The position numbers and the translations under genes are program-made. Under the pieces are notes generated by a model, which was not told where the DNA came from, searched no databases, and was given only the letters and a program-made list of their open reading frames with translations. Source: Eledone cirrhosa (lineage: Eukaryota). Taken from it: a stretch of 22,313 nucleotides of DNA. Shown here piece after piece: positions 1 through 22,313 of this stretch; the stretch's first letter is position 1, and each line of letters begins with the position of its first letter. The stretch is taken from the NCBI GenBank assembly GCA_964016885.1, contig CAXHJY010001744.1, positions 1-22,313 of the forward strand, given 5' to 3'.

Positions 1-83
1 TATACATATTCATATATATATACACATACACGCACGCACATAAGCATATCTACACACACACACACACATACACACAAACACAC
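1..83. repeat. (TA)/(CA) low-complexity run directly downstream of the RTE stop codon (3' UTR/tail or target array)
   Basis: tatacata...cacacacacacata...; the RTE stop codon is at 92-94; any further 3' end lies outside the window. Confidence 0.8.
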
Positions 84-3000
84 GATAGCAACTAACAGTG
101 CTGCGATCGAATGTGGCTTTTTAGCCCAGCCAATGATCTAAAATGTCTTGCACAGAGTCGGCAACCAAAACATTTACTGGGAATAGTCGGCTGTGGTTGG
201 AGTTCGTGTACTTTTGCATGTCGCTTGAGTCCTCCTGCTGATTTACATTCTCTACCACATGTTTGGCAAGCATGATGAGTAGCATCTCCAACAGCAGCCT
301 GGTAGTCAACCACTGGTCTTACTTTATGACTGCGAAGATGACTTTCGAGTCCAGCTTTGCTTAGGCAGAGTCTCGCACAGACGCTGCATGTCAGAAACAT
401 AGGAGGACCCTCGCCGTCTGGAAGTGCAACAGCAATACCCTTCCTCACGTCCCGCTTTACTTTCTCGTGTGCGATTCGAGATGCCTCAAAGGCAACTTTT
501 CCCTCATATACAGTCTTTCTCCATTTATTACGATCAGCAGCAATATTTTCCCATGTATCAGCAGAGATGTTAGCGTCTCTCAGAGAGGCTTTCAAGGAAT
601 CCTTATACCTCTTTTTTGGTTTATGTGGCGGTCGTTTTCCTTTAACCAACTCTCCATAGAAGAGTTGTTTTGGTATTCTAGAATCCTTCATCCTGGCAAG
701 GTGACCACTCCAGCGGAGTCGCTGCTTAAGCACAAGAGCCTCTATACTGTCACACATAGAGCTTTCCAAAATCTCGACATCACTGATGTGGTCCCTCCAG
801 CGAACGCCATGTATCCGTCTGAGACACATCTGATGGAAACGCTCCAATTGCTTAAGGTGGCGTCGATATGTGACCCAGGTCTCGCAGGCATAAAGAAGAC
901 AAGAGAGTACACATGCCCTGTACACCTTTACCTTTGTCCTCCTGCATATGTCTCGCCGACCCCAGAGTCGCCTTTCTAGCTTTCCGAAAGCATCACTTGC
1001 TTTCCTAATCCTAAGTGAGATTTCACCGTCAAGGTTGCCGTATCGATTGACAGTGCTTCCCAGGTAGACAAACTGATCAACCACTCCAAGTCGTTTGCCA
1101 TACACATAGATGTTTGGTTCAGTGTACTGCCTACCAGGTGCAGGTTGGTACATGACGACGGTTTTCTTGAGACTGACAGTCAAACCCAGGGCAGTGCAAG
1201 CGTCAGAAAATACATTCAAAATGTGCTGCATATCACTCTCTGTGTGCGCTACAAGATCGCAATCATCTGCATACAAGAGGTCTCTTATGACTGATGTAAA
1301 TACTTTTGTCTTCGCAGCAAAGCGCCTGATGTTAAATATGCTGCCTGAGGTTCGATATCGGATGTAAACACCATGCTCGCAATTCCTGAATGCAATACAG
1401 AAAACCATTGCAAAGTATATGGCAAACAGGGTCGGTGCTGGAATATCCCCCTGTTTCACTCCATTTTTTACTGAGATAGGCTCCGACATGTTACCTCCGA
1501 CATTAACCCAAGCCTTCATGTCGTCATGGAAAGACCTAACTAAAGCAAGGAACTTATCAGGGCAACCAAGTTTCTGGAGAACCTTCCATAATGCATCTCT
1601 GTTAACAGTATCGAAAGCCTTTGTCAGATCGACAAAAACCTGATACAGATCCAAGCCCTGTTCAATGCACTTCTCCTGGAGCTGTCTAGCTGAGAAGATC
1701 ATATCAGTAGTGCCGCGTCCAACACGAAAACCAGATTGACTTTCAGGAAGGACACAATCTGCAATGTGTGTCAGCAGACGGTCCAGAAGCACCCTACATA
1801 AAACTTTCCCCACGACAGAAAGCAATGATATACCTCTGTAGTTCCCACAATCATTCCTGTTACCCTTTCCCTTGTACAAGACCACCATTACTGCATCTCT
1901 CCAGTCCTCAGGCACGTATTCATTAGCCCATATCCTTCCAAACAGAGAGTGAAGATGTTGCAGGAGTCTCTCACCACCATATTGTAGGAGCTCAGCATGT
2001 ATGCCATCCATACCTGGAGATCTTCCACTGTTCAGCTTCGAAATAGCCACTGCAACCTCCACAAGTGTCGGAGGCTCTGCGAGAGCTACTTTCACAGGAC
2101 TTTCCGGAATGAGATTGAGGAAATCTTCACTGACGACAGACGGCTGATTCAAAAGATCATCAAAGTGCTCTCGCCACCTTCGTAGAATTCCCTGTGAGTC
2201 ACGAAGAAGTTCTTTGCCATCCTTGCTGCGAATTGGTGTCACCAGAGAAGAAGACGGTCCATAAACCTCACGCAAGAGACTGTACAACAGCTTTGTGTTA
2301 TTGCAATCAGACGCAGTTTGTATCTCACCAGCCTTCTCACTCCACCACTGATCCTTCATCTGAGAAAGACTCCGCCTAACACGTGATTTTACATCCCTGA
2401 GCTCCTCATGCAACGTATTCCTCTCCTGTGGCCTTGCCGTCAAGTAGCGTGACAGAGCGCGCCTCTTATCAGCCAACAAGTCATCTATATGCACATCTTT
2501 CTCATCAAACCAGTCCTGATGCTCTCTCTGCACCAATCCCAGAACACGTCTGCCTACATCATAAACCGACTTTTTAAGGGTCGGCCAATCCTCACCAAGA
2601 TCTGCAGCCTGCATCTCTTCTTCCAATGTCCTCTTCACATTTTTATCCTTAAGACGAGCAGCATTCAATCTTTTGGGCAGGGTAACACCAGGAGCCCGGA
2701 TTTTACGTTTGGTGATTAGATTCACTTTTGCGCGTACCAGGCGGTGGTCCGTCCAGCACTCAGCTCCACGAAGAACACGAACACACCGCACATCCTGTCT
2801 GTCACGCATCCTGACTAGGACGTAGTCCAAAAGATGCCATTCCTTAGATGCAGGATGCATCCATGTGGTCTTGAATTTGTTCCTTTGTTGGAACATGGTG
2901 TTGGTAACACACAGATCCAGCTCCTCACACATCTGCAGCAAGAGCATACCATTGCTGTTACACTTTCCCACCCCATGCCTTCCGATTACATTCCATGTGT

Positions 3001-3565
3001 TAAAATCCCTACCCACTCTAGCATTAAAGTCACCAAGCACGATGACTTTGTCTGCCTGAGGGATATTTCTTAAAACACCTTTCAAGGCATGGTAAAAGGA
3101 CAGTTTTTCTTCATCGACAGAATTCATAGTTGGAGCATACACACTCACCAGGGTAGCATATCTTCCCTTGTCCAGCGGAACTCTCATGGACATAAGACGC
3201 TCACTAATCCCCACTGGGAATTCTTCCAATTTATTCACCAGTACAGTCTTAACAGCAAATCCTACCCCAGCCTCTCTTCTGGTTCCTTCATCTCTTCCTT
3301 TCCAGAAGAATGTATATTCTCCACAAAATTCCGTAAGATGACCATCTCCAGCTAACCTCGTCTCAGACAAAGCCACGATGTCAAGATCGTAACGTCGAAG
3401 CTCCTTCGCAACAAGAGCGGTCCTTCGTTCAGGACGCTCCAAAGAATCCCTGTCAAGCAGCGTCCGTACGTTCCAGCAGCCAAGACTAAATGCCCTGTTT
3501 GGCTCTATTACAATGGCACGATGACGGGCGGGCCCAGGTTGTGATAACTTGGGGCCCCTGCCCTT
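84..3565 (-). mobile_element. RTE-clade non-LTR retrotransposon, 5'-truncated just upstream of the endonuclease domain
   Basis: Single long ORF with APE then RT; unique sequence ends abruptly at ccctt|atatata (3565); no 5' UTR visible. Confidence 0.92.
92..3565 (-). CDS. RTE ORF: AP-like endonuclease + reverse transcriptase + three C-terminal C2H2 zinc fingers (native start codon missing)
   Basis: APE motifs WNVRTL, ALSETR, YAPT, GDFNAR, LLDYVL, TDHRLV; RT motifs [30 protein letters not shown] (1262-1273), FVYLGS; RTE-type LLYACETW and [10 protein letters not shown]; the MYIYI start in the ORF track is microsatellite. Confidence 0.93.
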
Positions 3566-5082
3566 ATATATATATATATATACATATATATATATATACA
3601 TATATATATATATACATATATATATCTATACATATATATATATATACATATATATATATATACATATATATATCTATACATATATATATATATACATATA
3701 TATATATATACATATATCTATACATATATATATATATACATATATATATATATACATATATATATATATACATATATATATATATATATATCTATACATA
3801 TATATATATATATATATATATACATATATATATATATATATATATATATATACATATATATATATACATACATACATATATATATATACATATATATATA
3901 TACATACATACATACATATATATATATACATACATACATATATATATATACATACATACATATATATATATACATATATATATATACATACATATATATA
4001 TATACATATATATACATATATATATATATACATATATATACATATATATATATATACATATATACATATATATATATATACATATATATATATACATACA
4101 TACATATATATATATACATATATATATATACATACATACATATATATATATACATATATATACATATATATATATATACATATATATCTATACATATATA
4201 TATATACATATATATATATATACATATATATATCTATACATATATATATATATATCTATACATATATATATATATATCTATACATATATATATATATATC
4301 TATACATATATATATATATATATACATATCTATACATATATATACATATCTATACATATATATATATACATATATATATATATATATACATATACATATA
4401 TATATCTATACATATATATATCTATACATATATATATCTATACATATATATATCTATACATATATATATCTATACATATATATATCTATACATATATATA
4501 CCTATACATATATATATCTATACATATATATATCTATACATATATATATCTATACATATATATATCTATACATATATATATCTATACATATATATATCTA
4601 TATATATATATATCTATACATATATATATCTATACATATATATCTATACATATATATCTATACATATATATCTATACATATATATCTATACATATATATC
4701 TATACATATATATCTATACATATATATCTATACATATATATATATACATATATATATATATACATATATATATATATACATATATATATATACATATATA
4801 TATATATACATATATATACATATACATATATATACATATATATCTATACATATATATATATATATATATACATATATATATACATATACATATATATACA
4901 TATATATCTATACATATATATATATATATATACATATATATATATATCTATACATATATATCTATACATATATATCTATACATATATATATACATATATA
5001 TATACATATATATATACATATATATATATATACATATATATATATACATATATATATATATACATATATATATATACATATA
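3566..5082. repeat. Degenerate (TA)n array with TACA and TCTATACA variant units
   Basis: About 1.5 kb of alternating TA interrupted almost only by C on the plus strand. Confidence 0.97.
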
Positions 5083-21408: not shown

Positions 21409-21411
21409 TAT

Positions 21412-22017
21412 AGTATATATATATATATATACATATACATGTATATATATATATACATATACATGTATATATATATATATATATACATATATATATACAT
21501 ATACATGTATATATATATATATATATACATATATATATACATATACATGTATATATATATATATATACATATATATATACATATACATGTATATATATAT
21601 ATATATACATATACATGTATATATATATATACATATATATATACATATACATGTATATATATATATATATACATATACATGTATATATATATATATATAT
21701 ATATACATATACATGTATATATATATATATATACATGTATATATATATATACATATATATATATATATACATATACATACACATATATATATATATATAC
21801 ACACACACACATATATATATATATATACACACACATATATATATATATACACATATATATATATATACACATATATATATATATACACATATATATATAT
21901 ATATATATATATATACACACACACACACATATATATATATATACACACACATATATATATATATACATATATATATATATATATACACATATATATATAT
22001 ATGTATATATATATATA
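21412..22017. repeat. Degenerate (TA)n array with TACATG and (CA)n variant units
   Basis: tatacatatacatgtata units, then tacacaca units. Confidence 0.96.
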
Positions 22018-22313
22018 TTTCACAATTTACAAAATTTCTGTAACAACACGTAACAACACTCGCAGTTACGTAACAACACTCGCAGACAAGGCTTGGCAGC
22101 TGCGCGAAAATAATCAACAATTTAACCTAAAATGGGATATAATAGCAGCTGCCCCTGCATCTACTAAGGACAGGAATTTTGTAAATTGTGTAATATCAAA
22201 TTATTTTGTATTATGAAATCAAAAAAATATTTTATTTAATAACAGAATAGAGCGATCGTTATGCTGTAACCATCGCTTGAAATCTACATTTTCATATTAT
22301 AAACGCTACCAGG
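22018..22313 (+). pseudogene. Fragment of a second, diverged Naiad-like GIY-YIG C-terminus (runs off window)
   Basis: [30 protein letters not shown] / FCKLCN / IERSLCCNHR across two frameshifts, matching [46 protein letters not shown] of the minus-strand element. Confidence 0.88.

Follow-up and report, generated by a model that had tools for sequence, protein, structure and literature searches.

A 22,313-nt stretch of Eledone cirrhosa DNA (the window; contig CAXHJY010001744.1 of assembly GCA_964016885.1) carries copies of three retroelement lineages, namely an RTE-type long interspersed nuclear element (LINE), a CR1-group LINE and Penelope-like elements (PLEs), set between long arrays of TA-type repeats. 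Genomic copies of these families showed that RTE strongly prefers ATGT repeats in one direction, and that the CR1-group and Penelope-like elements use plain TA repeats. We put a probability of roughly 0.6 on the reading that the cut site is selected by the protein each element encodes and that the three lineages have separate array preferences. The contig itself is probably a field of long TA-type arrays entered by these lineages, each according to its own preference. An earlier note on this DNA had proposed a single (TA)n niche shared by all three. This held for the CR1-group and Penelope-like elements, whereas RTE mainly targets (ATGT)n in a polarised way, with an enrichment about 50-fold that of (TA)n.

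Insertion targets of the three lineages

The window is an entire unplaced contig in a 3.0-Gb assembly of 1,796 contigs, and is an extreme locus for TA arrays. TA-type 12-mers start at 38% of its positions, whereas the figure for a sample of 40 random 10-kb stretches is 5.6%. The genomic background figures rest on this sample, whose longest TA-type array measured 1.8 kb. Since the window was chosen for its TA richness, it is weak proof on its own, and the test was carried by copies from across the genome.

The window copy of RTE (1..3567, minus strand) is 5′-truncated shortly before its open reading frame (ORF), a stop-free frame of 1,149 codons (92..3541, minus strand) encoding an APE endonuclease (EN), a reverse transcriptase (RT) and three C-terminal C2H2 zinc fingers. 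The contig stops about 400 bp short of its true 3′ end, which was located in 38 of 40 genomic copies. At least 6,046 such ends were found by pattern; they were followed by ATGTATGT in 1,869 cases, by ATATATAT in 1,172 and by ATACATAC in 2, shares that are slightly high because ends with C at +18 were excluded. Relative to background (0.055% and 1.73%), these counts correspond to about 560-fold enrichment for ATGTATGT, about 11-fold for ATATATAT and about 0.6-fold for ATACATAC. A hand count of 100 listed RTE flanks gave 84 of G type, 11 of pure AT, 1 of C type and 4 mixed. Among the top 40 matches on two chromosomes, TA-type sequence flanked 35 of 38 3′ ends and 26 of 30 5′ ends, compared with backgrounds of 6.4% and 8.9%. 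Interruptions of the 3′ run by G and by C stood at 31:3 for RTE versus 22:29 for CR1 (Fisher p = 8e-6), and the 3′ flank opened with ATGTATGT in 20 of 38 RTE copies versus 0 of 72 CR1 copies. The arrays used by RTE are short, with a median of 16 by a TA-step measure. Three target duplications were unambiguous (about 20, 54 and 66 bp, in copies L074, L091 and L104), each beginning right after ATGTATGT and containing array plus unique DNA. Duplications of 66 and 54 bp are unusually long for a LINE.

The zinc fingers vary among relatives of this protein: of 120 homologues, 29 have three, 9 have two, 78 have one and 4 have none. In a tree of EN and RT only, built from 103 sequences (the window, the first 90 homologues and 12 metagenome loci), all 40 proteins with at least two fingers fell inside one 45-leaf clade with a support of 1.0. 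Judged from these domains, the window RTE is a member of this multi-zinc-finger clade. The 3′ side was read in 23 of 63 metagenome loci with RTE relatives, and among these 23 only L292 has three fingers. This relative, at 51% identity and with a different 3′ untranslated region (UTR), carries (ATGT)n at both contig ends in the same direction as the target of the window RTE; none of the other 22 has a 3′ flank of (ATGT)n.

RTE has a non-autonomous bipartite partner in the window (13335..13988, minus strand), which matches the RTE 5′ UTR at 73% and shares its 3′ end. With these matches, 13335-13988 was no longer taken for an element of the plus strand. TA-type sequence flanked 22 of 29 partner copies at the 3′ end and 21 of 29 at the 5′ end (same backgrounds as for RTE), and the polarised target of RTE was shared (G:C 23:2). 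The partner lay within 900 nt of 7 of 37 RTE copies, compared with 8 of 440 random tiles. Its 3′ end folds as a hairpin (z -3.7); folding was not significant for the 3′ ends of RTE (z -0.55) or the CR1-group LINE (z 0.16). The lineages probably meet here because the window arrays, TA interrupted by C on one strand, offer TA to all of them and ATGT to RTE on the minus strand. Both RTE-system copies in the window, the RTE and its partner, have minus-strand orientation within arrays interrupted by C, matching RTE polarity.

For the CR1-group LINE, DNA searches under-reported copies (10 matches, then none, common words being skipped), and an exact pattern was used instead, giving 2,945 exact 3′ ends genome-wide. 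In the first 72 copies on one chromosome, a strict rule classed 62 3′ flanks as TA-type, and ATATATA opens 8 of the 10 that failed it. At the 5′ side, 40 of 54 scorable copies had TA-type flanks (same backgrounds), a count that omits copies whose 5′ end was outside the fetched DNA, masked or past the window's truncation. CR1 thus has a fixed repeat, (TA)n, and no fixed direction, its interruptions being symmetric. Among PLEs, the family PLE-A had TA-type ends in 28 of 40 cases directly, a count that rises to 37 of 40 if a short intervening TC run is skipped; the family PLE-B had them in 22 of 24 rows (one masked, one from a neighbouring repeat). As the earlier note had supposed, APE-type and GIY-YIG-type elements alike enter TA-type arrays that were already there, at genome-wide flank frequencies that far exceed chance, and TA enrichment over background was found for all three lineages.

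That the arrays predate the insertions follows from the target duplications and from matching 5′ and 3′ flank patterns. Within the same CR1 copy, the interruption patterns of the two flanks matched at 0.67, compared with 0.34 when shuffled (n = 37, p <= 2e-4), and the match held 30-80 nt away (0.61 versus 0.30; n = 37, p <= 2e-4). For RTE, the match was significant at the junction (p = 4e-4, n = 23). In addition, arrays still adjoined the 5′ ends of copies cut short at various internal points (CR1 40 of 54, RTE 26 of 30). Control families from a random sample were mostly not flanked by TA, which indicates that TA flanking is family-specific: the four largest non-TA families had TA-type ends in 8 of 107, 9 of 54, 1 of 19 and 0 of 15 cases, and all families together in 89 of 330, these ends having been called by coverage and including some internal breaks. 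Families that end in other repeats, namely (AACC)n, (AAT)n or (ATG)n, occurred in the same sample (L212:8997-9750, L223:5631-5848, L225:4024-4271). Further microsatellite niches exist in this genome.

The junction types were also present in raw restriction-site-associated DNA (RAD) reads of two samples from another study. TA-type loose ends stood behind the CR1 tail in 633 and 639 reads, the CR1-tail consensus of the second sample being more mixed, and ATGT repeats stood behind the RTE end in both samples. Assembly error is therefore excluded for the junction types, though not for this contig.

Target choice and alternative explanations

If target choice lies with the proteins, the RTE protein would nick the strand reading ACAT at a T/A step, tolerating ATAT and rejecting the strand that carries G; the target would then probably be read by its three C-terminal C2H2 fingers. 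In long TA arrays, the CR1 endonuclease would nick T/A steps irrespective of strand. For each LINE, the first two letters of the tail unit (AT) could pair with the nicked end and prime reverse transcription. More tentatively, and at somewhat less than even odds, a widespread marine RTE lineage turned sequence-specific by gaining three C-terminal C2H2 fingers that read (ATGT)n one way, and the CR1 group became (TA)n-specific independently; together with Hydra elements and the families bound to (AAT)n and (AACC)n, they would divide the microsatellites, their UTRs serving as landing pads for one another.

The main alternative, though a less likely one, is that nicking is loose and that a nick is used only if its primer can pair with the 3′ end of the element RNA, the niche being self-inherited without any change of protein. 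Under such pairing, RTE donors located in (ATGT)n would produce (AUGU)n read-through tails, which match ACAT completely and need a wobble pair once per unit on ATAT and twice on GTAT; the tails of CR1 donors located in (TA)n would be (AU)n. This predicts the observed order ATGT > ATAT > ATAC as well as the polarity. AT opens the tail unit of both LINEs, a phase kept at nearly all junctions; PLE-A ends at short matches to its flank (including the 10 of 40 that run into TC repeats), and pairing of tail and target has been proposed for RTE, CR1 and L2 (PMC6007223). Single junctions speak against it. In L104, ATGT is absent on the primer side and present across the nick, which favours recognition by protein; L107 is a like case, with pure TA in place of ATGT. 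CR1 flanks keep the local array pattern on both sides with no donor-type letters added, and the same target in L292, despite its different 3′ UTR, fits a trait of the protein.

We consider it improbable that no specificity has evolved and that (TA)n cruciforms or unwound DNA are simply broken by host nucleases, with any element priming there. TA repeats reportedly form cruciforms and break (PMC9890227, PMC12972899), and young CR1 copies occupy long arrays more often than drawing insertion sites per base would give (24 of 46 at >=300 bp versus 19%). Fragility is, however, unable to yield a polarity of 1,869:2 on non-palindromic ATGT or to account for the short RTE arrays, and the most common repeats avoid TA. 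A fragile substrate may contribute for CR1. More improbable still is that the flanks were made by the elements through tail slippage, or that the assembly wrongly linked islands by way of TA runs. Microsatellites arise from the 3′ ends of RTEs (PMC2887409), the RTE studied here has TA, TG and ATT runs in both UTRs, and the window is an unplaced contig. Yet internally truncated 5′ ends adjoin arrays too, and the target duplications hold array and unique DNA. Mis-assembly, which the earlier note had named as a possible source of the junctions, is contradicted for the junction types by their presence on chromosome-scale contigs and in the raw short reads of the two other samples.

Besides the order and polarity that tail pairing predicts, several points weigh against target choice by the proteins in pre-existing arrays. 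The flank samples of RTE and CR1 were both non-random. Unambiguous duplications made up only 3 of 27 RTE candidates, both sides being repeats in most copies, and a single candidate duplication was found for CR1. Beyond 30 nt, the flank match was not significant for RTE (p = 0.11, n = 23), with p = 0.07 (n = 18) for the partner, and no empty allele was seen. The link between fingers and target comes from two members of the lineage, one of them external, and kin share traits. Finally, the assembly contains no second copy of the RTE junction of the window, which leaves the layout of this contig tentative.

Composition of the contig and turnover of arrays

The window consists of 9,662 bp of TA-type arrays and 12,651 bp of islands (57%). 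About eight insertions had been proposed; we counted nine element pieces, comprising one RTE, two CR1-group copies, one RTE derivative, four PLEs of three families and one short repeat. The statement that nearly all outer junctions lie in TA runs was borne out, 14 of the 15 listed junctions sitting inside a TA-type run or about 15 nt from one; at the remaining junction (19524), two elements abut directly with no TA-type run between them. It was also correct that no element is nested inside the coding sequence of another. One supposed junction, a TA/TG run at 1-85, proved to be part of the RTE's own microsatellite-rich 3′ UTR (1-91), common to 30 of 30 genomic copies. The arrays occupy 3568..5081 (with C interruptions on the plus strand, G in the RTE sense), 9215..13334 (4.1 kb), 13989..14526, 14970..17355 (2.4 kb), 18830..19364 and 21413..22017.

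Full-length RTE is estimated at about 5.7 kb from copy L079, and its 5′ UTR is repeat-rich by eye. The clade name is given by anatomy (one long ORF with APE and RT, a short tandem tail and a bipartite non-autonomous partner) and by resemblance of motifs, its homologues being almost all unnamed. Seven other organisms hold 30-75% of its sampled words (window 86-3500), with which close kin and horizontal transfer both fit. Inverted 5′ parts were frequent among the 40 genomic copies (L075, L080, L092, L099, L107), and L102 has a 5′ region heavily altered relative to other copies, resembling low-quality or hypermutated sequence. Two copies, L089 (=L029) and L098 (=L038), contain two different LINEs with ORF1-like frames, which we take to be Tx1/L1-like, inside the ATT run of the RTE 3′ UTR.

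CR1-group copy a (5082..9214, plus strand) is 5′-truncated inside ORF1, ends in a tail of 10-nt tandem units and has an ORF2 encoding APE and RT (5982-9119, plus strand, stop to stop). Copy b (17356..18829, plus strand), 99.3% identical to copy a, is 5′-truncated in RT and has small indels. Two ORFs, an ORF2 with APE and RT and no further Pfam domain, and a tandem-repeat tail suggest the CR1 group; named references that would fix a strict clade were absent among the homologues, the best named homologue being from Argonauta hians (57%). ORF1 (399 aa; L251:4080-5273, minus strand; window 5083-6111) combines an N-terminal segment of spaced Trp residues with a poly-Q tract and a pair of CCCH-like motifs, and gave no Pfam match above cut-off. 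The Trp-spaced segment presumably resembles Myb/SANT, and ORF1 is a candidate for target or RNA recognition. The CCCH motif goes unmentioned in PMC4120745.

The PLEs had been labelled Naiads, an identity that we rejected. PLE-A (19689..21412, minus strand) is 5′-truncated in RT, has one frame change and carries a C-terminal GIY-YIG domain; its full-length relatives have ORFs of 760-784 codons with RT first and EN last, and with the RWK and DKT motifs. Its domain order is thus the reverse of that in Naiads, in which GIY-YIG lies N-terminal to RT, with CCHH in its core and a CX2-5CxxC linker (PMC8557442). There is no cysteine pair in the GIY-YIG core of PLE-A, and both PLE-A and PLE-B have a CxCX5C linker, no CCHH, and CxxC and CxH by a conserved E and N. 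By motifs and domain order, PLE-A and PLE-B belong to the Hydra clade as new families. PLE-B is represented by a 3′ UTR or pseudo-long terminal repeat (14527..14969, plus strand) with a hammerhead-like core at 14870; a simple descriptor found no canonical hammerhead core in PLE-A. A third family, cut by the contig end, is present as an endonuclease fragment (22018..22313, plus strand) with 66% DNA identity to PLE-A. A 116-bp PLE-A 3′ end (19525..19640, plus strand) is joined directly to a short, abundant non-coding repeat of Penelope-like anatomy (19365..19524). This repeat, the second family of the random sample, occurs mostly as TA-flanked inverted pairs and had TA-type ends in 19 of 23 cases. 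Positions 19525-19804 form a near-perfect 280-bp palindrome of two facing PLE-A 3′ ends around a palindromic TA spacer. In both PLE-A and PLE-B, 3′ ends favour two positions, separated by about 105-110 nt, and 10 of 40 PLE-A ends enter (TC)n before (TA)n. Pfam does not recognise the Penelope-like proteins, and the 150 Rfam rows listed, of 366, contained only repeat-driven microRNA noise.

The earlier note had further suggested that arrays and elements grow together. In favour of this, each RTE insertion duplicates array DNA, the partner lies near 7 of 37 RTE copies, other LINEs sit in the ATT run of 2 of 40 RTE copies, and the CR1-group 5′ UTR carries a TA run. Against it, CR1 copies had no excess of neighbours (7 of 72 versus 34 of 440 random tiles), and older CR1 copies lay in shorter arrays than young ones (medians 70, n = 17, and 320, n = 46; p = 4e-4), arrays of >=300 bp holding 1 of 17 older and 24 of 46 young copies. 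Age was approximated by identity to the window copy, and 9 copies of intermediate identity were omitted. Steady co-growth is weakly supported and turnover fits better; local self-reinforcement was seen for the RTE system only.

Relation to known systems

R1-clade elements have a two-ORF anatomy, and membership of the window RTE in the R1/Waldo group was rejected on its single APE-RT-C2H2 ORF with an RTE-type UTR partner. Kibi, Koshi and Dong belong to clades other than RTE and CR1. Waldo, of the R1 clade, targets ACAY microsatellites, and Mino, Kibi, Koshi and Dong are listed with it (PMC3812793); Waldo and Mino are R1 elements by the title of a reference cited there, not RTE or CR1. Like these APE-type non-LTR elements, the window RTE is specific for a microsatellite, ACAT being the same repeat as ATGT, and it combines a fixed repeat, a fixed direction and target duplication in a pre-existing array. 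Unlike Waldo, it is an RTE whose only ORF ends in C2H2 fingers, and its target duplications measure 20-66 bp.

How APE-type retrotransposons acquire microsatellite targets has been termed not well understood (PMC3812793), and most target-specific families belong to early-branched, Tx1 and R1 groups (PMC4640811), outside which RTE and CR1 fall. Here, one genome holds a young, intact RTE with a strand polarity of 1,869:2 and a candidate reader domain, together with a CR1-group LINE that targets TA symmetrically. One-finger RTE relatives provide a natural control for protein recognition versus RNA-tail pairing, and the repeat content of the genome is organised by microsatellite type. The Hydra preference for (TA)n, microsatellite-specific APE elements, convergence of enzyme classes and the safe-site idea are already known. 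The literature searched, with Repbase, most subscription papers and supplements outside its scope and possibly describing such elements, contained no (ATGT)n-specific RTE or (TA)n-specific CR1.

Among published elements, RTE-2_OV of Octopus vulgaris (PMC9115989) shares with the window RTE the EN, RT, a C2H2 finger, a microsatellite-filled 3′ UTR and an intact ORF. It differs, in a comparison by description only, in its 1,109 aa and the one finger reported; the term 'target site' is absent from the main text on it, and the accessible text of PMC13282606 has no discussion of an octopus RTE with a C2H2 finger. Bipartite non-autonomous RTE elements are a concept of Kojima 2018 (PMC5786205). The element at 13335-13988 resembles them in holding only the RTE 5′ UTR and 3′ end, and differs in sharing RTE's polarised target.

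Hydra-clade PLEs insert in (TA)n in almost all families and have molluscs among their hosts (Craig et al. 2021, PMC8557442). The window PLEs have the same C-terminal GIY-YIG, RWK, DKT, CxCX5C linker, lack of CCHH and (TA)n target, and nothing essential differs. Keno and Utopia at U2 genes show different enzyme classes on one repeated target, with repeats as safe sites (PMC4640811), and nimaviruses likewise divide niches (PMC10871703); neither case involves RTE or CR1 elements. The RTE signature of Nishiyama and Ohshima 2018 (PMC6007223) resembles ours in that the tail repeat equals the first letters of the target duplication. That signature is weak, a T stretch plus one or two letters, whereas the target of the window RTE is a one-direction tetranucleotide enriched about 560-fold.

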